Positions 40,405 through 56,585 of a stretch of 64,000 nt of DNA are shown in pieces. Every line of letters begins with the position of its first letter. The first letter of the stretch is position 1. The stretch is from positions 15,569 to 79,568 of the IMG/VR virus record IMGVR_UViG_3300045117_000026, one strand, 5' to 3'. The notes under the pieces were generated by a model. The model was not told the DNA's origin. It ran no database searches and saw nothing but the letters and a program-made list of their open reading frames with translations. The stretch is from a virus. The position numbers and the translations under genes were made by a program.

Positions 40405-40445
40405 AGGTCTGAGTGGCAAAACAAAGAATGGAGGACGCAAGGTCG

Positions 40446-43130
40446 ATGTCCAAAACTTTACTAGAGGCCAAAGTGGATGCGGAGGTGTTTGGGGCTATCA
40501 AAGCCGCACTGGGGAAACTCAGTGCCGTGTCTGACAAGTTGCCCGAAAAGGCAAAGAAAGCTGTCGAGACACTAGCCTCTATCCTTGGTGGCAAAGTTGA
40601 AGCCAAGGAATCCGAAAAAGCTGAAGAGAAGGCGGATGAGGAAGAAGTGAAGTGTACCGGCAAGGAAGATTGTCCTTGTCCTGAATGCAAGAAAAAGCGC
40701 GGGGAAGAAGTAGAGGAAGCTTGCAAGGGCAAAAAGCCGGGTGAGGCTGATGAGGAATCCGGGGAATGCACTGGGGAAGAAGATTGTGAATGTCCGGAGT
40801 GCAAGAAAAACAAAGCCAAGGCTAAAGAGGCCCTGCGGCCGAGTGAAATCGTAAAATCACTCGACCTGCTTTATGAGGCCGAGAAAGAATCCGGGGACAA
40901 ACTGCCCAAGGATGTCATTACCGCTATCAAGGCGCTGATGACAAAACTAGCTGATGTTCTCAAGGACCTCGGTTACTCATACAGTGATGGTGGGAGCGGT
41001 AAGGGGTTCTATCATAATGATAAGGACTCCAAGCACAAGGGTAAGAAACCGCCTGCCTACTATTACTCATCTTCCTATGGAGATGCCACTCAAACTGTGC
41101 GTGAGCCTGTACCACATGACAGGAAGCGCATCCAGGCTTCCGCCAGACTGATTGAGTCTGTTAGCGGAACAGAGGGCAAGAAGTGGCACGCCGTCCTGAT
41201 TCAGTCAGGTCTATCGAAGAACCGTTTCATGTACCGGGATGATGTACTCGAAAAGGCTACGCCTCTCTTTGAGGGGTGTAAATCCTATGTTGACCATCCG
41301 AATACAACCGACAGGAAACAGTTACCTGAGAGAAGCGTGGCTGATATTGCTGGATGGTTCGAGGGTGCTACGAAGCAACCCGATGGCATTCATGCTACGT
41401 TCCATGTAGCAGGGGGCAAGGAATGGCTCCGTGAAATGTTCATTGATGCTTACGAGCACAATAAGCCCGACCTGCTCGGTTTCTCAATCTACGCCGAGGG
41501 TAAGACCCGTGTTGACAGACAAGACGGGAAACTAATCTGGATGGTTGAGAGTATTGACAAGGTAGATTCCGTTGACGTTGTGACTCAACCTGCAGCCGGC
41601 GGTCGAATTGCCGGACTAATTGAATCCGAAGATGGAGAAAGAGAAATGAAAGAACTCGAAAACATGACAGTTGAAGAACTGTCGAAGATTCGTCCGGACC
41701 TGGTCGAATCTATCAAGAAAACTGCTCAGCCCCAGCCGCCACCCAAGAATGATGAGGGGGATAAGGTGATTGCGAGGATGGCTGAAGCGGAAAAGGCAAT
41801 TAATGTTAAGCTTTGCGGCGTTGCCTTAAAGGAAAAGCTTGCTGGTAGTAAGCTTCCTGTCGCCTTTAAGGAAGCCATCGAGAAGGACTTCGCCGGTCGT
41901 GTTTACCCCGAAGCCGAACTTGATGCCCGAATCACCCGCGATACCGATATCTGGGCAAAAGCTTCTCCCCCGCCCCAGCCCGTTACTTCGAGAGTACGGG
42001 AAATGCACGAGAACAAGGACAACATCAGCAAGGCTCTTGATGCCATGATACAGAACAAGACGGATGTAGATGGCGTCAAACCGTTCCGGTCTCTTACCGA
42101 GGCCTACGCAACCTTTAAGGGAGTGCCGATTGTCGATGTTAATCCCCTGAACATACTCCGTGAATCGGCTGCCGGATACGATTCTGGCGCCAGGACCCTG
42201 AGGGAATCCGTTACCACTTCCTCTTGGGGTGAAATTCTTGGCGACTCCGTTACCCGTGCCCTGCTTGCCGAATACAACATCCCCGGCCTTGATGATTGGC
42301 GCAAGGTGGTCTCCACCATTACCAGCCTCAAGGACTTCCGGACTCAGCGCCGGCAGAGACTCGGCGGATACGGCACTCTGCCGTCCGTCGGACAGGGTGC
42401 TACTTATCAGTCTCTTACCTCACCAACTGATGAGGAAGTCACCTACTCTCCGAGCAAATATGGTGGGTTGGAAGACCTGACCATAGAAACCATCGCCAAT
42501 GACGACCTCGGTGCCGTTCAGTCCATTCCGAGGCGTCTCGCACGTGCCGCCAAGATTACGCTGTATCGCTTCGTGTTTGACTTCCTTGCGAACAACAGCT
42601 CCATCTATGACGCACTTGCCCTCGCCCACTCGACCCACGGCAACATCAGCACCACCGCCCTGAGTTATGCTCAGGTAATCTCTGCCGTCCAGAAGATGCG
42701 TGACTTCACCGCCTACGGCGCGACAACCGAGTTCTTGCAGATTCGGCCCAAGTTGCTCGTAGTCCCGAATGAACTCGAAGCCACTGCGTTCTACATCAAC
42801 ACGATGGATACCTATCCGGATACCGTTACCCCGGCTGCCGGTGGTACCGCTGCCGTTGACCTTCGCCGCAACATGGTTAAGGGATGGTTCGAAGTTATCG
42901 TGGTTGACTACTGGACCGATGCCGATAACTGGTGGCTGGTTGCTGATCCCAAACTCGCCCCGACATTCGAACTCGGCTTCCTTAACGGGAAGCAGGAGCC
43001 TGAACTGCTCTCGCAGAACGACCCGACCCAAGGCTCACTGTTCTCTGCCGATAAGGTCTCCTACAAGATACGCCATATCTACGGCGGAGCCGTTCTTGAT
43101 TGGCGGTCATACTTCGGCGGGATAGTGTAG
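40446..43130 (+). CDS. Prohead protease-scaffold-major capsid polyprotein (Mu gpT-like capsid domain)
   Basis: Protease motifs SKNRFMY, YVDHP, GFSI and SVDVVTQPAAGG; capsid motifs RPKLLVVPNELE, FLNGKQEP and YKIRHIYGGAVLDWR; GGAGG SD before the ATG at 40446. Confidence 0.92.
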   Translation: MSKTLLEAKVDAEVFGAIKAALGKLSAVSDKLPEKAKKAVETLASILGGKVEAKESEKAEEKADEEEVKCTGKEDCPCPECKKKRGEEVEEACKGKKPGEADEESGECTGEEDCECPECKKNKAKAKEALRPSEIVKSLDLLYEAEKESGDKLPKDVITAIKALMTKLADVLKDLGYSYSDGGSGKGFYHNDKDSKHKGKKPPAYYYSSSYGDATQTVREPVPHDRKRIQASARLIESVSGTEGKKWHAVLIQSGLSKNRFMYRDDVLEKATPLFEGCKSYVDHPNTTDRKQLPERSVADIAGWFEGATKQPDGIHATFHVAGGKEWLREMFIDAYEHNKPDLLGFSIYAEGKTRVDRQDGKLIWMVESIDKVDSVDVVTQPAAGGRIAGLIESEDGEREMKELENMTVEELSKIRPDLVESIKKTAQPQPPPKNDEGDKVIARMAEAEKAINVKLCGVALKEKLAGSKLPVAFKEAIEKDFAGRVYPEAELDARITRDTDIWAKASPPPQPVTSRVREMHENKDNISKALDAMIQNKTDVDGVKPFRSLTEAYATFKGVPIVDVNPLNILRESAAGYDSGARTLRESVTTSSWGEILGDSVTRALLAEYNIPGLDDWRKVVSTITSLKDFRTQRRQRLGGYGTLPSVGQGATYQSLTSPTDEEVTYSPSKYGGLEDLTIETIANDDLGAVQSIPRRLARAAKITLYRFVFDFLANNSSIYDALALAHSTHGNISTTALSYAQVISAVQKMRDFTAYGATTEFLQIRPKLLVVPNELEATAFYINTMDTYPDTVTPAAGGTAAVDLRRNMVKGWFEVIVVDYWTDADNWWLVADPKLAPTFELGFLNGKQEPELLSQNDPTQGSLFSADKVSYKIRHIYGGAVLDWRSYFGGIV

Positions 43131-43592: not shown

Positions 43593-43682
43593 AGTTGTGT
43601 GGGGGGAGTGGGAAGTTGCTAATCCGCTCTCCCCGCACGAATCACCTAGCGGTAGAGAAAAACACACTATCGGAGGAAGAGA

Positions 43683-44000
43683 ATGTGGGAAACCGTAGCT
43701 TATGGCACCGTGGCAGTTGGTACTGCCGCAGTAGGACTTAATAATACCGACGCAGGTGCGGTTCTTGCGCCTGCTAGTTCACCGCCTATTCAGGCAGCCC
43801 TCGTATACGTTGAACTCAATGCTGGAAGTGTCCGTTTCCGCGTGGACGGAGGGACCCCGGGTACAGCCTACGGCGGTGGATTCCTTGGTGCTTCAGATGA
43901 CTACATCTGGATAACCGGACAAAACGACCTAAGAAACTTCAAGGCTGTTGCTGCTAACAGCACTGTAGATGGTATATTGGTAGTTGCTTTCAAGCGGTAG
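43683..44000 (+). CDS. Small virion protein; paralog of the C-terminal domain of 62407-63573
   Basis: QAALVYVE...VRFRVDGGTP...G.FL...D.I.I.G pattern is shared. Confidence 0.65.
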   Translation: MWETVAYGTVAVGTAAVGLNNTDAGAVLAPASSPPIQAALVYVELNAGSVRFRVDGGTPGTAYGGGFLGASDDYIWITGQNDLRNFKAVAANSTVDGILVVAFKR

Positions 44001-44006
44001 GTAGTT

Positions 44007-44552
44007 ATGATAACTATCATCAACAGAAAGACCGCGGTAAGCGATATTCGTGCCACCGTTAATGAAATCAAAACGGAGGCCGAGTTCACTGAGGACCACA
44101 TCCATTCTAAGAACCGCGCATTAGGGAAGAAGAACCCCCAAACGGCTACTGTTTGGGCTGAACTTCAGTCCCTGAATCCGTTTGTTGTAACCTCTGGCAA
44201 TAATGATTTCGGAGCAGCAGAGCAACTGATTGGCTCTGCTGATACACCGTTTATAGTTGGAGAACTATCGTTCGACTGCGGTGATATGCTTATAACAGCC
44301 ACATCAGCAACAACCCCGTACATCATAAGGACTATATTTGGGACGGTCGATGCCGCGACTGCTGAAGCTGCCGGAGATTTTTCCGAGATACAATTTATGA
44401 AAGAAAGTGCTTCGGGTAGAGCTACCATTGTAAGAATTGGTATGCCAGCGATAGTCTCCGGTACTAAGGTCTGGGCAAAAGTCAAGAATGCGAGTAACGG
44501 GGAAACCATCTCGTTCTTGCTAAATATTCACCATTACGATATTGTGTATTAA
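44007..44552 (+). CDS. Putative virion structural protein
   Basis: 181-aa ORF in the head module with EDHIHS. Confidence 0.65.
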   Translation: MITIINRKTAVSDIRATVNEIKTEAEFTEDHIHSKNRALGKKNPQTATVWAELQSLNPFVVTSGNNDFGAAEQLIGSADTPFIVGELSFDCGDMLITATSATTPYIIRTIFGTVDAATAEAAGDFSEIQFMKESASGRATIVRIGMPAIVSGTKVWAKVKNASNGETISFLLNIHHYDIVY

Positions 44553-44618
44553 GATGGCTTTTGTAATGATTCGCAAAAAGGATAAGACCAAGATGCCAGG
44601 GAAGGTGCAGAAAGTCTA

Positions 44619-46739
44619 ATGGGCGCAGTTATTACTAGGGATGTCTCTCTTTCCGAGTTTACTGATAACGAGTACTGCTACTTTGGCAGTAGCAACGACG
44701 CTGCTATCTTTTATGATACCAATGACGCTAATGCCAATCACCTGAAGATTAAGTTGCCAACAGGCGATGCAACCAATGTGCCAGTTATCTCAATCGGCAT
44801 TGGCATCAATGTTGATCTCGGCTTTTTCAACGGCATAACCGAGCCACAGTTAGCAGTGCTGGACGCTGATCGTGACTCGTATATCCGGCTAGGGCATAAA
44901 GCAGACGACGAACCTACTCTATTCGGATATGCGACTGGACGGCTTCACATTCTATCTTGGGGCGAACTCGCACTTGAAGCAAACAATGATGCGACTCACT
45001 ACATTCGTATTAACTCAGGTGCAGTCCCCACTATGTATGGCACAGGCGCATATCTACGAATAGGCGACGCCGCTACCACAAGTCACGCGCTCGCCACCGA
45101 AGATGATTTAATGGTATCAGGGAAACTTGAAGCCGATGGCGCGTCATTCTTCGATGGTCTAGTCACGCTCGGTGCGGCTATGAATATGTCGGCGACTGAC
45201 CTCTTCGGTGTTGAAACAATCACGCGCTCCGACTCCTCTTTCACTTTGCGCGCGAAGTCGGGACTTAACTTCCAATCACAGAAGGCTGACGCGAGTTACC
45301 TGACTCGGCTTGCGCTATCAGGATTCGCCGACGAAGTGATATTGACCGTCCAAAACGCGACGCGCTTTATCTTCAACTCTTCGATAGCTGGTAATTACAA
45401 CGGAGCGGTAGCTTTAGCGCCTACGCTTACAGGGACGGCTGGTTCACAAGCGGCAGTCAAGATTAATCCGACATTTACGGGCGACCCAGCTGACGCTAAT
45501 CCGATGTTCGCAACGGCTATTGAGCCTGTTTTCAATATCGGCGGCGGGAATACTCACGGCGATTTGCGCGCCTTGTGGATTGCCGCGCCGACTATTAGTA
45601 GCGGGACGCTGACGAATTATTACGCGCTATTCCTTGATTCAGGCGGCGCGGCAACGTCTAATTACGCGATATTTGTATCGTCGGGTAAAAGCCGACTCGC
45701 ACCTGATAGCGTAGCCGTCGGATGGGGTAATTCAGACGACGCGAAATTCATGTTTGACGCCGCCGACGCGAACGCCAATTTATTCAAACTCGATTTGCCC
45801 GCGGGTAGCGCGACAAACGTGCCTGTTTTTGCCCTTGGTATAGGTATTATCAGTGTTGACCTTGGTTTCTTTAACGGTGTCACAGAACCACGCTTAGCGA
45901 TTTTCGACTCTGACCGCAACTCATGGATTGGAATTGGTGCTGTCAATTCAAGCGGGCGAGTAGGCATACTATCATCCGAATGGATTGAGATATGCCCGTC
46001 CAGTCAGACAACTTACCTTGTCAAAGTCGGCGCACCCTCAAACGTACCTACACTATTCGGTACAGGCGCATATCTCAGAGTAGGTGATGCCGGAACGACT
46101 AATCATAGCCTCGCTTCCGAAGATGACTTGATGGTGAGCGGTATCTTCGAGGTCAAGGGCTACGCCTATTTCGATGGTAAACTCCGAATGTTGAATAATT
46201 ATGATATTCAGATGAGGAATGTCGCCGGAACTGATAAAAGCGTTCTTTACGTTTCCACCAGTGACCAAGTAGTCCTCTCGGGCGATGGGCTGAATATCAT
46301 AACATCTGCCCCGCAGAAACAGATGAATATCACCAGTGCCGAAAGGGATTTTCACTGGCGGGATGTTTGGAATGTAGATGTAGTAGCATATACCACCATT
46401 TTAACTATTACCCCTAGCACTGTCAGTCAAGTATGGACACAAGGGATTGTTAAGGCTCACATAATGGGACATACCGGGGCAGTAGGCAATGGTTGTGTCG
46501 TATCGGCTTGGCGGTTTGCGATAGCAGATAATCCGCCTACAGTAGCAGTACTTGGAACTGATATTACAGAAGGTGGTGGCGCGCCAGCTTTTAGATTGAA
46601 CATGAGTGGTAATAATATTCAAGTTCAAGTTCGGTCTAGTAATGGGTCTGCTAGTTTCACAGGGCTGGCGGCGATTGAGGTATTTGCCCCGCATGGTGCT
46701 GGCTCTAGTGGGTCAAGCATGACATATACTATAAGTTAG
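44619..46739 (+). CDS. Head/tail fibre-like protein with internal duplication
   Basis: 706 aa, G/A/T/S-rich; a ~160-aa block occurs twice. Confidence 0.75.
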   Translation: MGAVITRDVSLSEFTDNEYCYFGSSNDAAIFYDTNDANANHLKIKLPTGDATNVPVISIGIGINVDLGFFNGITEPQLAVLDADRDSYIRLGHKADDEPTLFGYATGRLHILSWGELALEANNDATHYIRINSGAVPTMYGTGAYLRIGDAATTSHALATEDDLMVSGKLEADGASFFDGLVTLGAAMNMSATDLFGVETITRSDSSFTLRAKSGLNFQSQKADASYLTRLALSGFADEVILTVQNATRFIFNSSIAGNYNGAVALAPTLTGTAGSQAAVKINPTFTGDPADANPMFATAIEPVFNIGGGNTHGDLRALWIAAPTISSGTLTNYYALFLDSGGAATSNYAIFVSSGKSRLAPDSVAVGWGNSDDAKFMFDAADANANLFKLDLPAGSATNVPVFALGIGIISVDLGFFNGVTEPRLAIFDSDRNSWIGIGAVNSSGRVGILSSEWIEICPSSQTTYLVKVGAPSNVPTLFGTGAYLRVGDAGTTNHSLASEDDLMVSGIFEVKGYAYFDGKLRMLNNYDIQMRNVAGTDKSVLYVSTSDQVVLSGDGLNIITSAPQKQMNITSAERDFHWRDVWNVDVVAYTTILTITPSTVSQVWTQGIVKAHIMGHTGAVGNGCVVSAWRFAIADNPPTVAVLGTDITEGGGAPAFRLNMSGNNIQVQVRSSNGSASFTGLAAIEVFAPHGAGSSGSSMTYTIS

Positions 46740-46751
46740 AGAGGTGACAAA

Positions 46752-46976
46752 ATGGCAACAAATGTAGAAATCAAGGCAATTGTAATCACGTTTCCGGTGG
46801 ATGACAATGGAAACAAGAGTGTCGAGATCAGAACTGATTACGAAATATCAACAGAAGTTGGTACGGACACGCTGTCTGTTATGAGAAGCAAGGACACAAC
46901 GAAAGCGGATGCTACTCTTACCAAGAAGATAGAGGAGTATGTAGCCGACGTACTTGAATCCCTGCAACCGGCGTAG
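46752..46976 (+). CDS. Small fibre-associated (chaperone-like) protein
   Basis: Follows the fibre gene; GAGGT SD. Confidence 0.5.
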   Translation: MATNVEIKAIVITFPVDDNGNKSVEIRTDYEISTEVGTDTLSVMRSKDTTKADATLTKKIEEYVADVLESLQPA

Positions 46977-47040
46977 ACGACCAACTATGTGGTATAATCG
47001 CAATGGTGGTGGATAAAAGTAATTAAAGGAGATTAATAAG

Positions 47041-47400
47041 ATGTCAAGTAGCACAGTAAAACTAAAGAACAAGAAGCTCTTTACCATTGATGACGAGCCT
47101 ATGCAAACCGATGCAAAGGACGAAGGAAAGGCAGGCATGAGAGACGCCTATCTTCGGGATGCCATCAGGGTCTTGTGTAAAAGCCTGCCGGCTGGCAAGT
47201 TCACGATGGATGACAGTATCAAGGCGTATGAAATCGTACAAGCTGTCAAACAGCAACCTGGTGAGTTCTTTGAGATAGAACAGTCTCAGCTTGATTGGCT
47301 CCGGGATATGCTAAAGGCTCATGGCTCACTCGTCTTTGGTATCAATGAATGCATGGTCAAGTTTGCTTTGAATGCCGAGGAAGCGAAGAAGAAAGAGTAG
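47041..47400 (+). CDS. Hypothetical protein
   Basis: AAGGAG SD; extended -10 TGGTATAAT at 46990-46998. Confidence 0.65.
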   Translation: MSSSTVKLKNKKLFTIDDEPMQTDAKDEGKAGMRDAYLRDAIRVLCKSLPAGKFTMDDSIKAYEIVQAVKQQPGEFFEIEQSQLDWLRDMLKAHGSLVFGINECMVKFALNAEEAKKKE

Positions 47401-47839
47401 CAATGTGCTGATTACGCTTGATATAGGAACAATACTAGGTATCTTAACATTCATCGCCCTTATTGTGGAGGGCTTGATAAGACATCTAGTTATTGATGCC
47501 AAGAAAGACAAGCGTATTGCTATCCTTGAAATGCAGATAGGCCCGTTTTGGGAAATCATCAAGAAGAACATTCCGGAATTGCTTCACTCGCCAACGCATG
47601 TAGAAAAAGATGATTTGCTCAAGAAACTAGCTACTGGAGAAATCTCGTTACCCGATGCGATTAAACTAAAGGAAATACTGGGTGAGGAACTTGTCCAATG
47701 GAAAGAGGCAGAAAAGCTAGATAAGGTCAATGGCGGAATCTGGGTCATGATGGCTTTGAATGCCGAAATCGTAAAACTCGAAACTACAAAGAAAGAACTT
47801 GAAAGGGTAACAGGGAAACATAAATGGGGATGGAAATAG
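47372..47839 (+). CDS. Membrane-anchored coiled-coil protein
   Basis: N-terminal TM segment; true start probably GTG near 47405. Confidence 0.55.
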   Translation: MPRKRRRKSSNVLITLDIGTILGILTFIALIVEGLIRHLVIDAKKDKRIAILEMQIGPFWEIIKKNIPELLHSPTHVEKDDLLKKLATGEISLPDAIKLKEILGEELVQWKEAEKLDKVNGGIWVMMALNAEIVKLETTKKELERVTGKHKWGWK

Positions 47840-48090
47840 GCAATATAATAACTATCACCTTTATTCTTGGGTGTCTTGGCGCAAGCATATACCTATACAA
47901 GCTTATAGACGGAAGGGCAACAAAGTTTTTCATCTTTGCCTTTGCGTTTGGATTGGCACTGCAGTTCATGCTAATGATACCCGCTGTTTCTGATCTTGCC
48001 TTGCAATTAAGAGGCCTTTACTATGTAATGTTTTTCGCTGGAATCATGCTTATAGTCTACGATGTGAGGAAATTCTTCCGGGGAGATTAA
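47824..48090 (+). CDS. Three-TM membrane protein (holin candidate)
   Basis: Three hydrophobic helices; possible dual start M-G-M. Confidence 0.55.
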   Translation: MGMEIGNIITITFILGCLGASIYLYKLIDGRATKFFIFAFAFGLALQFMLMIPAVSDLALQLRGLYYVMFFAGIMLIVYDVRKFFRGD

Positions 48091-48091
48091 T

Positions 48092-48445
48092 ATGACTAAA
48101 CGATATACCACCTTAAAAGAACTAGCGTCGTTGACGTTATCAGGTTCAACGAGTGGCGTTGTTGCCTGTGATGACTATGACGTTAGTGATTATGCTGAGG
48201 GACTACTCTTCCCCTATATCTCAGCCCTTACTGGCGTTGGCACAATAGTCTTTACTTACGAACTGTCCCCGGATGGTACTAACTTTGCTGCACCTGCCAG
48301 CAATACGATTGGTACTATTGCGTCGGTTTCATATGGTGCCCCGCTAGCAATCACCAACTTCGGGCAATACATCCGTGTAAAATATAATGCTACAGGGGCC
48401 TTTACAGCAATGACCGCAGGTGTTAAATTTATGGTGAAGGACTAG
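48092..48445 (+). CDS. Small beta-sandwich virion protein
   Basis: ELSPDGTNF...YIRVKY pattern. Confidence 0.6.
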   Translation: MTKRYTTLKELASLTLSGSTSGVVACDDYDVSDYAEGLLFPYISALTGVGTIVFTYELSPDGTNFAAPASNTIGTIASVSYGAPLAITNFGQYIRVKYNATGAFTAMTAGVKFMVKD

Positions 48446-48446
48446 C

Positions 48447-49133
48447 ATGGCAATCACGCTTGATAATCTAGTAGAAAGCACTTACGACAAGATACAGGAC
48501 CAGAGTATCACTCGTGCTAGAGTCGAGCGTGCTGTTCTCGAGGCCGTCGCCTCTTATAGTCGGCTCCGTCCTCGAGTTCGAGTTCATGATATCCCCGGTG
48601 ATGGTTCAGCGTATGCTTTTGCGTTACCATCCGACTACGACACCAACTTTTCATTAATTACAGCAGTCGAATTTCCGGCTGACGAACAAGACCCTAACTA
48701 CCTAAAGCCAAAAGAGTACACGGTATATCAGGGAACTGCGAGTTACACACTTCGCCTAATCGATGACACACCCTCGTCATCTGATACTGTCCGTGTGACG
48801 TACACCGTACCCCACAGCGCAACGTCCTCAAGTTGCACAGTCCCGGACAATGATCGCTATGCGGTAGCTGCCCTGGCTGCCAGCAAATTAGCGAAGCAAC
48901 TGGCCGCTGAAAAAGCCAGAACACAATCCTCTACGTTGGAAGCAGACGTTGTCAACTATCTCACACAAGTTGACCACTTCCAGCGCATTGCCAAAGAAGC
49001 TGAAATGGACTACAGGAAGCACATGGGTATTCCTGATGGTTCTGATGTTGATGCGGCACATGATTATGGGGATATTGATACGCAGTTCTTCTGGGGCGAA
49101 GAATTCTTAACACACAAGGATCGTTTCCAGTAA
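48447..49133 (+). CDS. Head-tail adaptor
   Basis: Position; AVASYSR, VRVTYT and AVAALAA helical pattern. Confidence 0.65.
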   Translation: MAITLDNLVESTYDKIQDQSITRARVERAVLEAVASYSRLRPRVRVHDIPGDGSAYAFALPSDYDTNFSLITAVEFPADEQDPNYLKPKEYTVYQGTASYTLRLIDDTPSSSDTVRVTYTVPHSATSSSCTVPDNDRYAVAALAASKLAKQLAAEKARTQSSTLEADVVNYLTQVDHFQRIAKEAEMDYRKHMGIPDGSDVDAAHDYGDIDTQFFWGEEFLTHKDRFQ

Positions 49134-49181
49134 TCGGTGGTTCACAGTACAACTGAATATATATAAGGAGCAAAAGAGACT

Positions 49182-51959
49182 ATGGCTAGGATTATGGTTC
49201 ACAGCAATGCGCCATGGTGCGCGAGCGGCTATGGCAAGCTAACCCGATACCTTGTTAACGGGTTAATGAAGCGTGGTCACAAGATGGCAATATCAGCCTT
49301 CTTCGGCCTTCAAGGTGGGATTATCAATGCCGAGGGGGTTGATATATATCCGTGCGGCATTGAGGGATGGGGAAACGACGTCATTGAAGCGCATGCCAAG
49401 AAGTTTGGCGCCGACATGGTAATCACCATCATTGACAACTGGGTCCTCAAGGACTTTGGCAAGAAACTGCCCGACAAGTGGTTTCCGTGGTTTCCCGTCG
49501 ACAGCCATCCTGCTTCACCGCAGATACTTGCCAATCTTGGCGGGTCTGTCAAGAGTATCGTAATGTCGAAATTCGGTCTTGAAACGATAAGCAAAGAAGC
49601 CAAGTTTCCGAATCTTATCTACATCCCGAACTCTATTGATACGAAGATTATGAGGCCCCTCGCCCCCACCATCATAGAGTCAAAACGCAGGGCAAAAAGA
49701 GTCCTTGGTATACCGGATGATATGTTCCTTGTCTCCATGGTAGCGGCCAACCAGAGCAACCCCTCACGCAAGTGCTTTGAGGAAAACATCGAGGGGTATT
49801 TGAAGTTCCATGCCAAACACCCGAATTCAATGTTGTATATTCATACCGACCCATTGCCCGTCAGACAAGGCATTGACCTTTATCGGGTAATCAATATTCT
49901 CGGTGGCGATAACTCAATTCGTTTCCCTGACAGATACGATTACCATCTTGGAATTGACGAAGAGCAGATGAATGTCCTTTACAATGCCAGCGACGTTCTC
50001 CTCTCATGCTCTGGGGGGGAGGGTTTTGGGATGCCTATCTGTGAAGCCCAAGCTGCCGGTACTCCTGTCATTGTTACGAATGCCACAGGGATGCCTGACC
50101 TTGTTGGGGCGGGATGGGTGGTGCCTATCCATCACAAGAGGTTCTACAATCTCGGTAATTGGCATTTTCTTCCTGAGATAGAAAAGATAACCGAGGCGTT
50201 AGAGAATGCTCTTAGTATCAACAAGGAATTTTTGGGTGACAATGCCCGCAAGCACGTTATGCAGTTCGATTGGGATTACTGTATTGATAACTACTGGATG
50301 CCTCTTATAGAGGAGCACGAGAAAGGCTCTGTTGATAGGCTACTTAAGAGTTTCCCTGTTAATGCGGATGGGAACAACTATGCTGGCGAAGAAAGCAATA
50401 TGATTGTTGTGCCGACATGGTCATGCAATCTAGGTAATAAAGCAGAGACAAAGTGCGTCTATTGCGACTATGTGCCGTCAGAGGGTGGTCATTGTGTCAA
50501 TATGTTCCAAGGCATTAACAACGTTAAGATAGATAAGCACCTTGAGCCGAAAGAATGGTTGGACTTCATTAACAAGCGAATGAAGAAACCGGGGCTTGTT
50601 GAATTCACAGGCGGTGAGCCGTTGATGTACCCTGGGTTCAAAGAACTTGTTAACAATCTGCCTGACGGAATTACATGGGCTATTACCTCAAATACGATAC
50701 TTTCAACAGAGGGGATTGACCCCAGCAAGTGCAGAGCATGGACAGCTTCTTTCCATCCGACAGCACCAGCTCCGTATTCAAATCTAGGTTGGTTCATCGA
50801 GAGAATGGCAGCACTTCGTAAGCAGGGGTTTAAGAATATAGCGGTAACTGTTGTTGCCCATCCCAGTTACTTGGATGGTCTCCGTGACGTTGTTAAGGCG
50901 CTACGGATGGCGAGACTCGAAGTCAATGTCGCTCCGTTCTACTCGAGAGCCTTTGATTGGCGCAAGGACCCATCGAATCTTCGCAGGTTGCTTGACTTCT
51001 CCAACTTCTTCCATGGTTTTAATCGGCTGTGGTGGGACGATACTCCGTCGAATGCGATGTGCTCTGCCGGTGTAACAAGCGGTATAGTCATGCCTGATGG
51101 CAGGATATATCGTTGCTACTCGTCCATGCTGTGGGACAAGCAGTTATTGGGGAATGCTACTGACGAGAAATCGCCTTACCTAGAGAACGAATCAATGTGC
51201 GGGTTGCCTTGCATGTTCCCCTGTGACTACGGCAGGAGACGGATAGTTTCTTTGCCGACAGTATCGGTAGCCACTCTTGTTGGACCGGATGCCACCAAAG
51301 AACACCTCTCAAGGTTCTCAAAGATGATTCGTGAGATAGGTTATCCGAAAGAGAAGATGAAGGTCGTTGTCATGTCGCATCCGTCAAAGACCGAGAGTGT
51401 TTCAGAACTGGACTTCGGTGGCAGGGAAGTTATTACGATTATTGAACCAGTAATCAAAGGTACCAAGTTCCAGCGTATAGCCGGATGGCGAAACGCCTTG
51501 AAAGAAAAGGCTCTCGAGTCCAATCCTGATTACATACTGATGATTGATAGCGATATAGTCAGCATGTCGCCAAGTTCGCTTTCAAGAATGACATCGCTAG
51601 GCGCTGATGTAGTAGCCCCTCTTGTTGTCCTCGAAAACTCACCATGGGGACAATACTACGACACCCTAGCTTTCCGCAGAGATGGACAGCGATTCGGGCT
51701 GGCCCCGCCGTATTCAAAGGGTGTTGAACTTGGCTCCGGCAAACTACTTGAACTGGAGTCCTGTGGCACCGTTTATCTAATCTCGAACAGGGCAGCCAAG
51801 ATATCCAATTATGCCGGAGATATAGACTCCGAACACGTTGCTTTCTGTCATAATGTGAGGACTAACGGAATGAAAGTCATGCTTGACCAGAAATCTACTG
51901 CCTTTCATGTAATGCTCGAGAATCCGCACATGGAAGATGAGTGGAGGAAAGTAGCGTAA
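49182..51959 (+). CDS. GT4 glycosyltransferase - radical SAM - GT2/GT-A fusion
   Basis: SGYG and EGFGMPICEAQAAG (EX7E); CNLGNKAETKCVYC plus FTGGEP and CSAG...PDGRIYRC; C-terminal IDSD (DxD) and SEHVAFC. Confidence 0.88.
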   Translation: MARIMVHSNAPWCASGYGKLTRYLVNGLMKRGHKMAISAFFGLQGGIINAEGVDIYPCGIEGWGNDVIEAHAKKFGADMVITIIDNWVLKDFGKKLPDKWFPWFPVDSHPASPQILANLGGSVKSIVMSKFGLETISKEAKFPNLIYIPNSIDTKIMRPLAPTIIESKRRAKRVLGIPDDMFLVSMVAANQSNPSRKCFEENIEGYLKFHAKHPNSMLYIHTDPLPVRQGIDLYRVINILGGDNSIRFPDRYDYHLGIDEEQMNVLYNASDVLLSCSGGEGFGMPICEAQAAGTPVIVTNATGMPDLVGAGWVVPIHHKRFYNLGNWHFLPEIEKITEALENALSINKEFLGDNARKHVMQFDWDYCIDNYWMPLIEEHEKGSVDRLLKSFPVNADGNNYAGEESNMIVVPTWSCNLGNKAETKCVYCDYVPSEGGHCVNMFQGINNVKIDKHLEPKEWLDFINKRMKKPGLVEFTGGEPLMYPGFKELVNNLPDGITWAITSNTILSTEGIDPSKCRAWTASFHPTAPAPYSNLGWFIERMAALRKQGFKNIAVTVVAHPSYLDGLRDVVKALRMARLEVNVAPFYSRAFDWRKDPSNLRRLLDFSNFFHGFNRLWWDDTPSNAMCSAGVTSGIVMPDGRIYRCYSSMLWDKQLLGNATDEKSPYLENESMCGLPCMFPCDYGRRRIVSLPTVSVATLVGPDATKEHLSRFSKMIREIGYPKEKMKVVVMSHPSKTESVSELDFGGREVITIIEPVIKGTKFQRIAGWRNALKEKALESNPDYILMIDSDIVSMSPSSLSRMTSLGADVVAPLVVLENSPWGQYYDTLAFRRDGQRFGLAPPYSKGVELGSGKLLELESCGTVYLISNRAAKISNYAGDIDSEHVAFCHNVRTNGMKVMLDQKSTAFHVMLENPHMEDEWRKVA

Positions 51960-52786
51960 TGGCTCACTTAATCGCTTTCTTGACATGGAGATGCGGGTTA
52001 GGTTGCCCCTACTGCGGGTATTACCTGCAGCCGGATGGCATGTCGCTGAAGTATTGCCCGTTCCAAGATAAGCATACATACGTTGTCGAACGCGAGATTA
52101 CCGGGGACGAGTGGATAAAACAACTTAAGCATTTTGCTAAACTTCAATACACTATTGAATTTTGCGGTGGCGAGGTCACAAAACACCACGACTTCGTTAA
52201 GATAGCCAATAGCTTGCCACAATGGGCAATCACATCTAATACCATGAATCTTCCAGAGGGATTGGATTACTCAAAGTGCTTCAGTTGGACCGCGAGTCTT
52301 CATTACCATATTGGAGATAAAGGCATTCAGAAGTTCATGAACAATGTTGACATTATCGCCAGCAAGGTTAGTTCCTACAGCATGACGATGGTTGCTATGC
52401 CAAATACAATAGCTAGAGTAAAAGCGCTATCCGAGATGTTAACTAGCAAGGGTATTAAAAATCAGCAACATGTTTTCTATGATGATCCATCGTTCTCATG
52501 GTATCATCATCCAAAGGAACTTAAGGAATTAGAGACACTTCCTAATGTTTGTTATGAGAAGAGATTGTTTAGTTGGGGTCAAGTCAAAGGCTCGAGTATG
52601 TGCCGTGGCGGTAGTGGTTACATAACAATCGGTCCGGATGGGAAGATGTTCAGGTGTCTTACTGCAATGCTGGAGGGGTGGGGGGAGATACCCGCGCCTG
52701 ATATAAACTTCTACGATTGCAAGAGACCATGTCATCTACCTTGTGATTGGTCATGGCGTGATTGGTTATGGGGAAGTGGTGCGTAA
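51941..52786 (+). CDS. Radical SAM protein (paralog of the fusion's middle domain)
   Basis: CGLGCPYC, FCGGE, WAITSNT, CRGG...GPDGKMFRC and CKRPCHLPCD; start may be the ATG at 51959. Confidence 0.88.
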   Translation: MEESSVMAHLIAFLTWRCGLGCPYCGYYLQPDGMSLKYCPFQDKHTYVVEREITGDEWIKQLKHFAKLQYTIEFCGGEVTKHHDFVKIANSLPQWAITSNTMNLPEGLDYSKCFSWTASLHYHIGDKGIQKFMNNVDIIASKVSSYSMTMVAMPNTIARVKALSEMLTSKGIKNQQHVFYDDPSFSWYHHPKELKELETLPNVCYEKRLFSWGQVKGSSMCRGGSGYITIGPDGKMFRCLTAMLEGWGEIPAPDINFYDCKRPCHLPCDWSWRDWLWGSGA

Positions 52787-52918
52787 TGCGTGATATAATG
52801 CAAAATAGAGGCGTCCAGCTAATGGAGCGACTGATTCCATGTCTAAGCATAATGGACGCTAAAAACGAGGCTTCTAGGGGCATTTCTCGCCAAAGTAGAA
52901 GCTGGCTGGAGTCGTATA

Positions 52919-53434
52919 ATGGCTAACTCAAAGATATGGCGTCTGATGGAAAAGGTAAAGGAAGCTCTCGAGAATATCGAGGGTATTGCCGAGGGCAAGG
53001 CGCGTGTCCGCATTATGGCGCAACGTGCGGTCACGCCCGAGGTATTCGAGAAGATTTTCCAGGTACAGTTAGAGGCGACTAAGCCCGTTCATGCATGGGT
53101 TATCAGGTGGAACGGCGCCAACGACATCACGTACCCGGAGACTTCTCTCCAGACCGTAATGCGCGACCATGATTTAACAATCTTTGGCTTCAAGAGCTAT
53201 AGCGAGCACTCTGATGAAGAGATGCTCCAGATAGCGGAAAGGATTATGGATTCTTTAACGCAAAAGAAAACATTGGGTATCGGGCTTGTTACCGATGCCG
53301 ATGAGCCGATATTAATGCATTCAAGGACTGCAGTAGCTAATCTGAATCAAACAATGCTTGGGCCCGTTCTGTGCAGTTTCGCTGAATTCCGTGTTACTGC
53401 TCGCGAATGGAAGGGCGACCAGCAATTCACTTAG
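52919..53434 (+). CDS. Tail terminator / neck protein
   Basis: Position before tail tube; alpha/beta pattern. Confidence 0.55.
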   Translation: MANSKIWRLMEKVKEALENIEGIAEGKARVRIMAQRAVTPEVFEKIFQVQLEATKPVHAWVIRWNGANDITYPETSLQTVMRDHDLTIFGFKSYSEHSDEEMLQIAERIMDSLTQKKTLGIGLVTDADEPILMHSRTAVANLNQTMLGPVLCSFAEFRVTAREWKGDQQFT

Positions 53435-53443
53435 GAGGACATA

Positions 53444-53692
53444 ATGAGAGTTCGAATAACAATTGACACTAATCTGCTGGTAGTAAACAGGATGGAAATC
53501 CCTGTACCGGCGGACCGCATAGTCGAGTGCGAAAATGAGTTAGCGGAGGTAATTGTTAAGACATTGAAGTATGGCGAATATTTATATGATGATGTCTTGT
53601 CAGCATTACCGGAGCCTGATAAAATGGAGGAAAAGCATGAGGATTTAAGGCCACCTATTCCAATGGGAAGCTTTAAGAAGCGCAAGAAATAA
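53444..53692 (+). CDS. Small hypothetical protein
   Basis: AGGAGG SD. Confidence 0.6.
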   Translation: MRVRITIDTNLLVVNRMEIPVPADRIVECENELAEVIVKTLKYGEYLYDDVLSALPEPDKMEEKHEDLRPPIPMGSFKKRKK

Positions 53693-53710
53693 CTTGGAGG
53701 TCAATGAAAC

Positions 53711-54682
53711 ATGACGCAGACTTTTAGGACAAAAGTAGGCATTGCTGGCGAAACCGCTTGGGGCAGCGGTACTGCCAATGGCGCCTACCATATTATTCCA
53801 TGTGAAACACCGAGAGTTTCAATCAACTACGAGCAGATACTTGATAGCGGTCTCCGTGGTATCGCCATGAAGGACTTCGGCGCTTATCAGGGCGTCGGTC
53901 ATTCAGAAGTAACACTTTCCGGCATGGCGTATCCTGACGAGATCGGATACTTCCTGTGGGGCATACTCGGCTCCGTATCTGCTGCCGCTGGCACACCAAC
54001 AGTCCATACCATGACGTTAGCAAATGAACCACCGTCGTTCATCATCGAGGACCAGACTAACGTTAATGCTCCTGGAGGCGCCGTTGAAACCAACGCGATA
54101 AAATTCACCGGAATGCTTGAGAACTCGCTCTCATTGCGTTTCAATGCCGGTGAAGGAGCGGTCAGTTTCGAGGCATCATTCATGGGCAAGATAGGTGCCG
54201 TGGGCGCCTTAAACACCATCGTTGGTACACCTGAAGCGCCTTTCCTGGGTTGGTATGGTTCAGTCTCAGCAGGAACGGTGCTCACCACGAAGATCATCGA
54301 CACCGAGTTCACGTTCTCCCGCGAAGTCGCCGTTGTACATACTGGTGCTCAGACACAGAATCCGTCATTCGGGTATCATGGTCCGCTTGAAGTCACCGGT
54401 AGGGCAACGATGGCATTCCATACGTTCGATGACTATAACAAGTACCTGAACAACACACAGGAAGAACTTATCTTCGAGTTCGTCCGTGGTTCTAGTACTA
54501 CTCTCCGCAGTCTCAGGATTACCCTGCCCAAGGTCAGTTATCTTGAAGCCCCGATGGAAATTGACCGTGGCGCAGTTGACGCAAGGCTAAGCGTGTCGTT
54601 CCGTGGCTTGTGGGATTCAAGCGATGGGGACAAGCCGGTGATTATATTGAAGTCCCTGGAAGACAACTACCAGACAGCATAG
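53711..54682 (+). CDS. Major tail tube protein
   Basis: VGIAGETAWG N-terminus, GYFLWGILG, PSFIIE and EVTGR; 323 aa. Confidence 0.88.
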   Translation: MTQTFRTKVGIAGETAWGSGTANGAYHIIPCETPRVSINYEQILDSGLRGIAMKDFGAYQGVGHSEVTLSGMAYPDEIGYFLWGILGSVSAAAGTPTVHTMTLANEPPSFIIEDQTNVNAPGGAVETNAIKFTGMLENSLSLRFNAGEGAVSFEASFMGKIGAVGALNTIVGTPEAPFLGWYGSVSAGTVLTTKIIDTEFTFSREVAVVHTGAQTQNPSFGYHGPLEVTGRATMAFHTFDDYNKYLNNTQEELIFEFVRGSSTTLRSLRITLPKVSYLEAPMEIDRGAVDARLSVSFRGLWDSSDGDKPVIILKSLEDNYQTA

Positions 54683-54687
54683 TTTCC

Positions 54688-54718
54688 GAAACCCGAGTGC
54701 TAAAAGCACTCGGGTTTC
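54688..54718 (+). terminator. 14-bp stem-loop after the tail tube gene
   Basis: GAAACCCGAGTGCT-AAA-AGCACTCGGGTTTC. Confidence 0.75.
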
Positions 54719-54736
54719 TCAGGAGTGTAATTCTAG

Positions 54737-55059
54737 TGGCAATAGCACTTAAGATAGCTAGGAAGAGAAAGAAGATGACGCAAGCTGAACTCGCCGAGGC
54801 GACAGGCGTAGACCGTCGGCAGATTTCGGCGTATGAGACTGGTCGTGTAATCCCGCAACTATCAACTATTGTAAGGCTCGCTTCTGTCCTAGGCGATGCC
54901 ATACATGAGAGATACAGTTTTATTGACACCAATGGTAATAAGAGTGAGTTCATCGTCATGTTTTCGAGTGAATTCGTCTCTAATGGGTTCAAGACAACCA
55001 TCATGCAGACAGCAGATGGCAAGACAATAGTATCAAGAAAAAAGGAGATAACTAAATGA
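54737..55059 (+). CDS. XRE/Cro-C1 HTH protein
   Basis: LKIARKRKKMTQAELAEATGVDRRQISAYETG...P; AGGAG SD before the GTG. Confidence 0.85.
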
Positions 55060-55412
55060 GTTGGGAAGCTTATCGCAAATCAAAGGTTAAAAGGTTTACC
55101 CTAGAGTCACTTTCTCTTCCGGAGTTCTGGATAGATATCCGTGACATGAAGTCGCTGACTCCGGCAGAAGCGAAAGAACTTGACGCAAAGACAAGGGTTG
55201 ATTCCCCGGCAATTGATGACATTATTTCAACCATCGCCCCGCTTGTCGTGGCATGGAATGTCACTGATGAAGCTGGTAATCCGTTGCCGGTCCCGTCCAA
55301 GAGTAGGGAGTCTCTTGAGAAGTTGCCACTTGATATAACCCTTTTCATTGCTCAAAGTTCAACCAATGAAATACGGAAAGAGGATGAACTCCCGGAAACG
55401 AAAGGGACCTAA
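55056..55412 (+). CDS. Tail assembly chaperone (gpG-like)
   Basis: VVAWNVTDEAGNPLP motif; position upstream of tape measure. Confidence 0.8.
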   Translation: MSWEAYRKSKVKRFTLESLSLPEFWIDIRDMKSLTPAEAKELDAKTRVDSPAIDDIISTIAPLVVAWNVTDEAGNPLPVPSKSRESLEKLPLDITLFIAQSSTNEIRKEDELPETKGT

Positions 55413-55645
55413 TCTGGGCAGTCATTAACGAGACGTATACAGGTCAGGTCCCTCTCCCGCCGTGGTATACTACAATACAGTTGATGAGGACGTTAAAATG
55501 TACCGAGAAACAACTGGAAGAGGAATATACAATCGGCACCTTAAATAGAATAGCTTATGTCCTTGACCTCGAGGGCAAACATAACAAGATGATGATGGAC
55601 AATGCCAAAGCTAAGCAAACTCATACGAATACCAAGTCTCGTTAG
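55388..55645 (+). CDS. -1 frameshift extension of the tail chaperone (gpGT-like)
   Basis: Open -1 frame overlapping the chaperone 3' end with no SD-led start; LMRTLKCTEKQLEEE. Confidence 0.65.
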   Translation, partial: TPGNERDLIWAVINETYTGQVPLPPWYTTIQLMRTLKCTEKQLEEEYTIGTLNRIAYVLDLEGKHNKMMMDNAKAKQTHTNTKSR

Positions 55646-56573
55646 GAATCCCAAACTCGCTAGTTCGGGGACCCCGACGAAGAAGCCAACAAAGTTTGGT
55701 TCTCTAGGAGCGTGGCCTGTTAGACCCAAAGTAGGTCGCCCCGCGTTGCCACCCCCCTTGCCTCTGCCGGTAGTCGAAAGCGGACTGAAGATACGGTTCG
55801 ATGTTGACGCTAAAGACCTGTCAAAGTTCGGTATCAAGCTAAAGTACTTTCGTGAGGAAAACATCGAGCCTATTCTCGCCAAGGTCCAGGACATCATGTT
55901 GCACAACTTCAAGCTGATGATTCAGTTTATTCATAATGAAGAAGTCGATATGTATACCGGTCAGTCGTTCGGGGCAATCCGCATGAAGAAAGTTCCCGAT
56001 CCTACGGAGGAATCGGGCTATCGTGGCTATGTTGGCTATTTCCCTCAAGGTGTTGAGAACTCTGAACGTAATACCTCGAGGCCTGTTATGTCGTATCTCC
56101 CCGTGCTTGATAGAGGCTTGCCCCCTGGTGTTCTTGGTATACAGGGCAATGCTCTTAAAGAGATATCCCCTCAGGGCCGTGAGAGATTGGGTATGTGGGC
56201 ACTCGAGCATGGGATTACTATCCCGCCACAAACGATTACTTCACGTATCAAGGTCAAAGGCAAGTATAAAATGAAGACCCATAAACTTCCAACACGCTCG
56301 GGTTACAAGAGTGTCGGTTGGGTTCTTGCCCGCCATATTGGTTCGGCAGGTATGCGTGGCAGGCAATTACGGATGAAGATAGGACAAAGGCTGATGCAGA
56401 ACTGGACATTATGGCTGGAAGACGCTATACGTTCGGCAACGTTGCTTGTTGGCGCATTCAATCCGCAACACGTTTCCGGTGTGTTCAGGCCCGAAGCAAC
56501 CACTATCATTACGCATGGCGGTAGTGCTAGCCGGAGAATACCTGAGAGGAGGAGAGCAAGGCACGGTGGTTAG
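55602..56573 (+). CDS. HK97 gp10-like neck/tail completion protein
   Basis: YTGQ...I, YLPVLDRG.PPG, LGMWA..HG and LARHIG..G.RG. Confidence 0.55.
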   Translation: MPKLSKLIRIPSLVRNPKLASSGTPTKKPTKFGSLGAWPVRPKVGRPALPPPLPLPVVESGLKIRFDVDAKDLSKFGIKLKYFREENIEPILAKVQDIMLHNFKLMIQFIHNEEVDMYTGQSFGAIRMKKVPDPTEESGYRGYVGYFPQGVENSERNTSRPVMSYLPVLDRGLPPGVLGIQGNALKEISPQGRERLGMWALEHGITIPPQTITSRIKVKGKYKMKTHKLPTRSGYKSVGWVLARHIGSAGMRGRQLRMKIGQRLMQNWTLWLEDAIRSATLLVGAFNPQHVSGVFRPEATTIITHGGSASRRIPERRRARHGG

Positions 56574-56585
56574 AGGAGAGGTTAA

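Follow-up and report, generated by a model that had tools for sequence, protein, structure and literature searches.

What do two radical SAM domains do beside two glycosyltransferase domains among the genes that build a phage particle? The question is raised by a window of 64,000 nucleotides from an uncultured tailed phage (positions 15,569 to 79,568 of IMG/VR record IMGVR_UViG_3300045117_000026, which is 67% complete), in which we found two open reading frames on the + strand, at 49182-51959 (925 amino acids) and 51941-52786 (281 amino acids), exactly where a preliminary description had placed a glycosyltransferase fusion and a second radical SAM gene. Both genes lie in the late virion operon, on the same strand as and between the prohead protease-major capsid fusion gene (40413..43130, +; PF25209 4.7e-45, phrog_29592 1.2e-138, phrog_133 2.3e-48) and the tail tube gene (53711..54682, +; PF18906 Phage_tube_2 9.7e-20, phrog_290 1.8e-21). 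The genes from capsid to tail tube are tightly spaced, Shine-Dalgarno sites are strong, a stop and a start codon overlap as TAATG, and across 43000-57000 terminator-like sites do not exceed their frequency in shuffled sequence. The upstream neighbor (228 aa; 48447..49133, +) has no match in Pfam or PHROG searches, and 16 of its 30 nearest ESM Atlas clusters fall in the SU10_adaptor set (score 0.97), which makes it an adaptor-like lead only. The downstream neighbor (171 aa; 52919..53434, +) likewise lacks a Pfam or PHROG match, and judged by its place in the operon it could be a neck or tail-terminator protein. Of the suggested setting between head-tail adaptor and tail terminator, the adaptor stands as an Atlas lead and the terminator has no family match, whereas the tail tube gene is a solid landmark.

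The fusion gene (49182..51959, +), preceded by the Shine-Dalgarno sequence AAGGAG (49165..49170, +) 11 nt 5' of its ATG, encodes a GT4 / radical SAM / GT-A protein of 925 residues, an architecture borne out by Pfam, PHROG, and family-profile matches. The same three-domain layout occurs in one other protein, P0043 (914 aa), which shares 41% identity along its full length and conserves each domain together with its motifs. The GT4 domain (residues 1-386; 49182..50339, +), of the GT-B, retaining type, passes the PF00534 gathering score (45.3 bits against 26.4) and matches phrog_2170 over residues 4-345 (E = 1.7e-29); its EX7E motif, E280-x7-E288 in GEGFGMPICEAQ at 50019-50045, is conserved in P0043. 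The middle domain (residues 405-686; 50394..51239, +) is recognized by a radical SAM family profile at 4.8e-89 and carries the atypical CX9CX2C motif that had been read from the sequence (C415-x9-C425-x2-C428, 50424-50465), together with GGEP, TSNT, and further cysteines toward its C-terminal end (C627, C645, C673, C677, and C681). The GT-A domain (residues 688-925; 51243..51956, +) reaches 30.1 bits with PF03452 Anp1 (cut-off 28.8) over 62 residues only, and its DXD motif, D789-S790-D791 at 51546-51554, is invariant in P0043 and P0083. In the Atlas structure search, this domain gave TM values of 0.77-0.81 to viral Anp1/GT2_4 clusters, and Foldseek with its AF2 model, a mediocre one (pLDDT 64, TM about 0.5), returned COLGALT1 (1.4e-8), LH3 (2.3e-8), and Mnn9 (2.2e-6). 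A GT-A fold of the C-terminal domain is supported by these predictions.

The second gene (51959..52786, +) encodes a stand-alone radical SAM enzyme of 275 residues if it begins at ATG 51959, or of 281 residues if it begins at GTG 51941. The ATG is the likely start, because a Shine-Dalgarno GGAGG (51943..51947, +) lies within the 3' end of the fusion gene, the stop and start codons overlap as TAATG, and the N-termini of homologues agree. The overlap is therefore 1 nt instead of the 19 nt given by the GTG start, and the two genes are probably translationally coupled via TAATG. The CX3CX2C motif that had been recognized here (C18-x3-C22-x2-C25 in the 281-aa numbering, 51992-52015) is invariant in 42 family members, and the GGE SAM-binding motif, G76-G77-E78, is invariant or nearly so. 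Besides C113, there are five C-terminal cysteines, and the putative auxiliary-cluster set C221...C268 is encoded at 52601-52744. The first half of this C-terminal motif, C221-x12-G234-x4-C239, matches the SPASM pattern CX9-15GX4C, whereas the second half is CX3CX3C (C260, C264, and C268) instead of CX2CX5CX3C; this partial motif would suit either a twitch domain or a partial SPASM domain, and TIGR04085 (SPASM) reached 17 bits where its cut-off demands 27. The AF2 model (pLDDT 85.3) predicts a SPASM/twitch-type fold with a partial TIM-barrel, and Foldseek found 28 solved structures at E<=1e-3, all those listed being radical SAM enzymes. Most of the named matches modify peptides or proteins (SkfB 1.7e-7, SuiB 1.8e-7, TigE, PqqE, EpeE, and anSME), and the sugar modifiers BlsE and DesII occur among them too.

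Compared with each other, the stand-alone enzyme and the middle domain are 27% identical over 285 residues (E = 1e-27). The proposed paralogy thus holds, and it is old, since the two fall in different subfamilies. In both, the three SAM-cluster cysteines are retained along with GGE, TSNT, and six more cysteines, and both look intact as predicted enzymes. By sequence they belong to one uncharacterized family, probably of the twitch/partial-SPASM kind, which numbers some 455 representatives at E<=1e-10; every member examined is known from metagenomes only. Neither domain reaches the PF04055 cut-off of 29.5 bits (21.5 for the middle domain and 18.9 for the stand-alone enzyme); because the stand-alone enzyme falls short as well, the low score is a family trait, and some members do pass, such as P0058 at 40.1 bits. 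Among the NCBIfam equivalogs searched (PqqE, MoaA, anSME, viperin, QueE, the STM4011 family, and N_Twi_rSAM), no curated cut-off was reached, the best being PqqE, with 26.5 against 381 bits, and STM4011, with E = 2.6e-10 among the 42 members against a 200-bit cut-off.

The family is repeatedly tied to glycosyltransferases. In nine of ten metagenome loci, and on one further viral contig, the closest radical SAM homologues (37-41% identity) adjoin a homologous GT4, and a class I SAM methyltransferase, fused or adjacent, is usually present in the metagenome loci. At locus L001, the order is MCP, methyltransferase, radical SAM, GT4, connector, and tube. Members are also fused to GT4 (P0058), to GT4 and Anp1 (P0043), to Anp1/GT2 (P0083 and P0095), and to Mannosyl_trans3 (P0118), and the fusions to GT4, to Anp1-type GT-A, and to Mannosyl_trans3 are independent of one another.

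The GT4 clade belongs to virion modules. Among 50,697 phage records searched by tblastn at E<=1e-5, the GT4 domain matched only Microcystis, Pontimonas, Tetrasphaera, Synechococcus, and Rhodothermus phages, and no mycobacteriophage glycosyltransferase. It is 33-35% identical (residues 2-380) to the capsid-adjacent GT4s of Microcystis phage Mae-JY09, where the gene is one after the MCP, and Pontimonas phage phiPsal1, where the order is MCP, GT4, SAM methyltransferase, GT2, and neck protein; it is 31-38% identical to the GT4s in 23 IMG/VR loci, often GT4-GT2 fusions of 650-684 aa. Where upstream DNA is available, the GT4 gene is at most one ORF from an HK97-type capsid gene (PF05065, 1e-51) in 18 of 19 IMG/VR loci, and it is often followed by an SDR epimerase/dehydratase (PF01370, 1e-28), a GT2, or methyltransferases, and then a gp6-like connector. 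The slot that holds radical SAM enzymes in our phage is taken by sugar-tailoring enzymes, SDR epimerase/dehydratase and methyltransferases, in its relatives. The module itself follows the adaptor-like gene, whereas in the relatives it directly follows the capsid gene.

We therefore read the module as a late-expressed virion glycosylation system in which the radical SAM enzymes tailor the sugar, and we regard this reading as about evenly poised between right and wrong. The GT4 would start a short glycan on a structural protein, with the capsid protein, a 706-aa repeat protein, and the tail tube protein as candidate acceptors, and the GT-A domain would extend it. The two radical SAM enzymes might edit a C-H position of the sugar, either on the nucleotide sugar or after attachment. 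For this they would use an auxiliary Fe-S cluster as well as a 5'-deoxyadenosyl radical, and the candidate reactions are epimerization, oxidation to a keto sugar, and deoxygenation/decarboxylation. They would thereby replace the NAD-dependent epimerase/dehydratases and the methyltransferases of the related cassettes. We infer the virion target, the sugar substrate, and the order of these steps. The radical-tailored virion glycan first suggested for this locus gains support from the operon context, the capsid-side GT4 clade, the linkage of radical SAM enzymes to glycosyltransferases, and the sugar-tailoring enzymes in the corresponding slot of relatives. DNA, its alternative target, is disfavored because genes for QueC, TGT/DpdA, and a thymidylate-synthase-like hydroxymethylase are absent from the record, although this is 67% complete. 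Literature searches are consistent with the claim that such chemistry is undescribed for phages. Several observations count against our reading: the fold matches to peptide modifiers, the TPR fusions in the wider radical SAM family, the PHROGs class of the GT4, the position of the module off the capsid gene, the failure of the GT4 to match mycobacteriophage enzymes, and the absence of a nucleotide-sugar synthesis gene from the 67% complete record. On reading the capsid and tube sequences, we also noticed no obvious Ser/Thr-rich C-terminal tail.

The peptide-modifier matches lead to another explanation, which we consider rather unlikely: the substrate of the radical SAM enzymes would be the acceptor protein, in which they would create or alter the residue that is then glycosylated, or they would carry out a separate cross-link or epimerization in a virion protein. 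The logic would be that of the collagen lysyl hydroxylase LH3, in which a hydroxylase is fused to a GT-A domain, or that of the anSME-type Ser/Cys oxidation. The top fold matches of the stand-alone enzyme are protein- or peptide-modifying SPASM/twitch enzymes, and for the GT-A domain the best solved matches, at about 1e-8, are COLGALT1 and LH3, which glycosylate the hydroxylysine of collagen, alongside an Atlas match; LH3 is itself a glycosyltransferase-hydroxylase fusion. TPR domains, to which some family members are fused, usually bind proteins, and radical SAM enzymes are often anaerobic counterparts of O2-dependent enzymes. However, the 275-aa enzyme is essentially a core plus an auxiliary-cluster domain, with no RRE (RiPP recognition) domain, and in the loci compared the radical SAM-GT4 pair is not accompanied by any conserved small gene for a precursor or acceptor. 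The same slot in related cassettes is held by enzymes that act on sugars, BlsE and DesII act on sugars too, and the GT-A fold match, which comes from a mediocre model, leaves the acceptor unfixed. A more specific form of the idea, which we hold to be quite improbable, is that the radical SAM domains are the anaerobic counterpart of residue hydroxylases or oxidases and would activate a C-H bond in a virion-protein side chain, making the glycosylation site that the flanking GT4 and collagen-GT-like GT-A domains would decorate. If true, this would be a radical SAM-dependent protein glycosylation without O2, following the glycosyltransferase-hydroxylase logic of LH3 or mimivirus L230, and side-chain activation for glycosylation would be a reaction type undescribed for any radical SAM enzyme.

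We think it improbable that the module serves a target other than the virion, be it a host envelope glycan or glycolipid, for receptor masking or superinfection exclusion, a small glycosylated metabolite, or the phage DNA. In PHROGs, the GT4 family is assigned to the 'moron / host takeover' category, with moron/auxiliary genes, and both DNA and host serotype are known targets of phage glycosyltransferases (PMC12619734). The same phage has other DNA-modifying and unusual enzymes, namely a Dam fusion among its head genes and two additional radical SAM genes, and in a record of this completeness, pathway genes could be missing. On the other hand, the position inside virion operons, by capsid or neck genes, is conserved across unrelated phages, the genes expected for DNA modification named above are absent from the record, and domain searches detected no membrane-transferase or flippase family in the fusion protein. 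Virion glycosylation is the sole experimentally established role of glycosyltransferases placed in this way (Freeman et al. 2023, via PMC12619734 and PMC10877033).

That the middle radical SAM domain is a dead linker or scaffold, leaving only the glycosyltransferases and the stand-alone enzyme active, is very improbable: its low PF04055 score and its departure from CX3CX2C would suit such a role, but a low score is shared with the stand-alone enzyme, the domain retains GGEP, TSNT, and each of the nine cysteines conserved in the family, as does P0043 at 41% overall identity, and spacers of 7-13 residues recur in neighboring members that keep everything else (Cys1-Cys2 spacers of 3, 7, 7, 8, 8, 9, 13, and 13), as other radical SAM enzymes also tolerate insertions between Cys1 and Cys2, for example, the CX14CX2C of a QueE.

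Glycosylation of phage virions has been shown recently, only with ordinary transferases and methyltransferases, and it affects how the particle is recognized, for example, by antibodies. The present locus links an uncharacterized radical SAM family to glycosyltransferases through both fusion and adjacency, and the 925-aa polypeptide is a ready-made construct for probing the role of a radical SAM domain within a glycosylation line. With the sugar as substrate, the module would perform a new glycan-tailoring reaction on virus particles, and with the acceptor protein as substrate it would carry out a novel type of protein modification. In both cases, it represents a widespread, unstudied class of late phage genes, probably from anoxic habitats.

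The capsid and tail tube subunits of mycobacteriophages are glycosylated by phage glycosyltransferases (Freeman et al. 2023, Cell Host Microbe 31:1216, as cited in PMC12619734, PMC10877033, and PMC13313380). In these citing papers, the glycosyltransferase genes, often with methyltransferases, lie among virion structural genes, and no radical SAM partner is mentioned. The glycosyltransferases of our phage lie inside the virion structural operon too, but the GT4 lacks a mycobacteriophage match at E<=1e-5. Phages phiPsal1 (gp010-012) and Mae-JY09 share a homologous GT4 that likewise lies in the operon region from the capsid to the neck genes. In phiPsal1, a tailoring enzyme sits between the GT4 and a GT-A-fold transferase, as the radical SAM domain does in our phage; however, the phiPsal1 enzyme belongs to the class I SAM methyltransferases and the three are separate genes, whereas our fusion protein joins both transferases through a radical SAM domain and has another radical SAM gene behind it, and our GT-A domain has no detectable similarity to the phiPsal1 GT2. 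Compared with the solved SPASM/twitch enzymes SkfB (6efn), SuiB (5v1t), anSME (4k36), PqqE (6c8v), EpeE (8ai1), BlsE (7vob), and DesII (8hzy), matched by Foldseek at 1.7e-7 to 5e-4, the modeled stand-alone enzyme shares the partial TIM-barrel core, GGE, and a Cys-rich C-terminal putative auxiliary-cluster domain beginning C-x12-G-x4-C, but the sequence identity is 11-16%, the C-terminal motif is CX3CX3C, the RRE domain is lacking, and curated family cut-offs are not reached. For the human enzymes COLGALT1 (GT25) and LH3, the fold match comes from a modest-quality model and sequence comparison gave no significant similarity (E 0.16-0.2); in those operon proteins that were read by eye, no repeat of the collagen type stood out. 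LH3 nevertheless resembles the fusion protein in joining a transferase to a C-H-activating enzyme, which is an O2-dependent Fe/2-oxoglutarate hydroxylase in LH3 and a radical SAM domain here.

The 925-aa ORF at window positions 49182-51959 (+) comprises three domains, and the GT4/radical SAM/GT-A fusion with an atypical CX9CX2C motif, followed by a CX3CX2C radical SAM gene, that the preliminary description had proposed was confirmed by the ORFs, domain scores, and motifs. Residues 1 to ~386 form the GT4 domain (PF00534, 45.3 bits against a cut-off of 26.4; phrog_2170, 1.7e-29), with the EX7E motif at E280-E288; the radical SAM middle domain (residues ~405-686) carries C415-x9-C425-x2-C428; and the GT-A domain (residues 688-925; PF03452 Anp1, 30.1 bits against a cut-off of 28.8) contains a DSD motif at 789-791. 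Among the proteins searched, this three-domain fusion appears to have one other example, the 914-aa radical SAM family member P0043, which shows an identical GT4-radical SAM-Anp1 layout and 41% identity throughout. A search for near-length homologues of residues 395-925 returned the fusion protein alone, no shorter homologues of the GT-A domain were recovered when sought, and this domain has no detectable similarity to the GT2 of Pontimonas phage phiPsal1 or to the neighbouring protein in Microcystis phage Mae-JY09. It resembles viral Anp1/GT2_4-type clusters with a TM of ~0.8 in the ESM Atlas's own model, and its AF2 model, of modest quality (pLDDT 64), matches COLGALT1, LH3, and Mnn9.

Directly 3' of the fusion lies the gene of a small stand-alone radical SAM enzyme with a CX3CX2C motif (51959-52786, +). 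Its true start is almost certainly the ATG at 51959, for a product of 275 aa and an overlap of 1 nt (TAATG), because the stop/start junction reads GCG TAA TGG, a GGAGG is located 11 nt upstream, and the homologues begin at the equivalent Met. The overlap with the fusion gene noted previously thus exists, but it is almost certainly only 1 nt. The TAATG arrangement suggests translational coupling with the fusion gene. Residues of this enzyme are numbered below from the GTG at 51941 (281 aa).

Both genes sit in the late virion operon, which occupies the plus strand from ~32 kb onward; the source IMG/VR record is 79.6 kb long and 67% complete (CheckV). The large terminase (starting at 32202) and portal (starting at 34781) are followed by a Dam-methylase fusion (36682-38355, +; D12-class adenine methyltransferase domain, PF02086, 5.2e-23), in which an N-terminal half without an identified family is joined to the D12 domain, between the portal and capsid genes. 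The prohead protease-major capsid fusion (40413-43130, +) precedes several small plus-strand ORFs, a 706-aa internally repeated protein, and a 228-aa protein directly before the fusion gene, and a 171-aa protein (+), a putative terminator, separates the stand-alone radical SAM gene from the tail tube (53711-54682, +; PF18906, 9.7e-20), and the tape measure (+) starts at 56586. The 706-aa protein (44619-46739, +), between the capsid and neck genes, has two similar halves (...DANANHLKIKLPTGDATNVPV... vs ...DANANLFKLDLPAGSATNVPV...) and no family match; a decoration or fibre role is conceivable, and it is a candidate glycan acceptor. The 155-aa and 88-aa proteins at 47372-48090 (+) contain hydrophobic, membrane-like stretches, and the head-neck block in which they lie is an unusual location for holin-like genes. 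An Atlas lead marks the 228-aa protein as a candidate adaptor. Homologues of the flanking 228-aa, 171-aa, and 117-aa proteins were absent from all the relatives' loci compared, and close relatives of the tail tube and of the whole fusion protein were not found in IMG/VR; the phage is an orphan.

A word-sharing search of 5.8 billion clustered proteins yielded only 12 homologues of the stand-alone enzyme (36-46% identity), and a family profile search of 1.84 billion representatives gave 2,400 matches at E<=1e-3, 455 at E<=1e-10, and 59 at E<=1e-30. All ten family members checked are metagenome-only singletons or near-singletons. No tblastn match to the enzyme was obtained among 50,697 isolated phage records, and a pattern scan of 185,579 species genomes detected no family relatives, the broader alignment A2 having no stretch conserved enough for such a scan. 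The invariant or near-invariant residues are the three SAM-cluster cysteines, GGE, T98 and N100 of TSNT, H121, and a C-terminal set of C221-x12-G234-x4-C239 and C260-x3-C264-x3-C268; C113 is invariant within the close homologues (alignment A1). This cysteine layout is apparently that of a twitch or partial-SPASM family. The AF2 model of the enzyme (pLDDT 85.3) matches the solved SPASM/twitch enzymes SkfB, SuiB, BlsE, TigE, PqqE, EpeE, anSME, and DesII at 1.7e-7 to 5e-4. Neither of the window radical SAM domains nor any of 42 family members reached the curated Pfam/NCBIfam cut-offs; the family is undescribed. No informative literature was found on STM4011, one of the families matched below its cut-off. 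Two variants were observed among the homologues. The 554-aa protein at L021 468-2132 (Ga0307379_10186561) has a ~280-aa insert immediately following CPYC in the SAM-cluster motif, with both flanks aligning to the family, and it looks like an intein within the active-site motif. One clade of the family (L017 1356-2294, L018 161-1066, and L020 2569-3459) bears a ~35-aa N-terminal extension with a zinc-ribbon-like CPKC...E(L/I)... motif, which the window enzyme lacks.

The two window radical SAM domains had been called paralogous, and the relationship is borne out as an apparently old one. In a quick tree, they fall in different subfamilies, so a local duplication was rejected as their origin: the stand-alone enzyme clusters with the metagenome loci L013, L014, and L019 (97% support), and the middle domain falls together with P0043, P0019 (42% identity), and P0021, the last two being stand-alone proteins. 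The middle domain retains all the family-conserved cysteines and motifs, and the Cys1-Cys2 spacers around it in the tree are 3, 7, 7, 8, 8, 9, 13, and 13; CX9CX2C would thus be a tolerated variant, and decay of the motif was rejected. Two further radical SAM genes were observed in the record. The third (19453-20436, -; PF04055, 3e-10) lies on the opposite arm within a group of ubiquitin-like conjugation genes (15078-21357, -), together with a ThiF/E1-like protein (15884-16915, -; PF00899, 8e-24), a JAB-like protein (15078-15884, -; 1.3e-4), and an IBR/half-RING-like protein (20851-21357, -; 8.5e-4). The fourth (250 aa, -; PF04055, 6.5e-7; weak PA0069-family match, 8.8e-10) is outside the window at record position G000:C1:1063-1815 (L024).

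The family is repeatedly linked to glycosyltransferases. A GT4 homologous to that of the window (26-28% identity) adjoins the radical SAM gene in nine of the ten metagenome loci with the closest radical SAM homologues, and a class I SAM methyltransferase is usually present, either fused to the GT4 (L013, L019, and L020) or beside it (L014, L016, L019, and probably L017). Viral contig L001 has the order terminase, portal, protease, capsid, methyltransferase, radical SAM, GT4, connector, and tail tube, and in L002, L006, and L008 more distant radical SAM relatives form part of large glycan clusters that immediately follow the capsid gene. Several of the 20 longer family proteins scanned are fusions to glycosyltransferases of differing families, namely, besides P0043, GT4-radical SAM (P0058), radical SAM-Anp1/GT2 (P0083 and P0095), and Mannosyl_trans3-radical SAM (P0118); in other long members the fusion partners are TPR repeats or additional radical SAM modules. 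The three-domain fusion, the specific twitch-type family, and the independent fusions to several glycosyltransferase families appear to be the distinctive features here.

The operon position, the coupling, the capsid-adjacent GT4 clade, and the fact that virion glycosylation is the only role demonstrated for glycosyltransferases in such a position (Freeman et al. 2023, as represented in PMC12619734, PMC10877033, and PMC13313380) point to a module that would build a glycan on a virion protein. In relatives, the slot next to the transferases holds sugar-tailoring enzymes, an SDR epimerase/dehydratase and methyltransferases, and on the most parsimonious interpretation the radical SAM enzymes would tailor the sugar as well. 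Dehydrogenases, epimerases, and decarboxylases are all represented among auxiliary-cluster radical SAM enzymes of this type. No SDR sugar epimerase was found in the 67%-complete phage record, and a search for a Ser/Thr-rich acceptor tail revealed no clear one. The leading alternative has the acceptor protein, not the sugar, as the substrate of the radical SAM enzymes, which accords with the TPR fusions in the family and with the similarity of the GT-A domain to transferases acting on collagen hydroxylysine; the predicted fold matches cannot separate the two readings. Modification of DNA or of the host envelope is less likely, since PF00303, PF06508, and PF01702 are all without a match in the incomplete record (no hydroxymethylase, QueC, or TGT) and the fusion protein matched none of the membrane-transferase or flippase families. 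The chemistry had been noted as unrecognised for phages, and our literature search likewise turned up no account of a phage virion glycosylation cassette that contains radical SAM enzymes.

We found 23 IMG/VR contigs with a homologue of the window's GT4 domain (31-38% identity); none of these loci has the radical SAM gene. The GT4 is at most one ORF from an HK97-type capsid gene (PF05065, 1e-51) in 18 of the 19 contigs having upstream DNA, although these loci perhaps stem from four or five lineages and should not be counted as 19 separate events. On the 3' side are an NAD-dependent sugar epimerase/dehydratase, GT2, or methyltransferases, and then a gp6-like connector. The relatives in isolated phages also adjoin the capsid gene: phiPsal1 encodes MCP, GT4, methyltransferase, GT2, and neck protein in order, and the gene order of Mae-JY09 is similar. 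Many of the IMG/VR homologues are GT4-GT2 fusions of 650-684 aa, and since the pairing of GT4 with GT-A is common in these relatives, the fusion protein looks like that arrangement with a radical SAM domain inserted between the two transferases.
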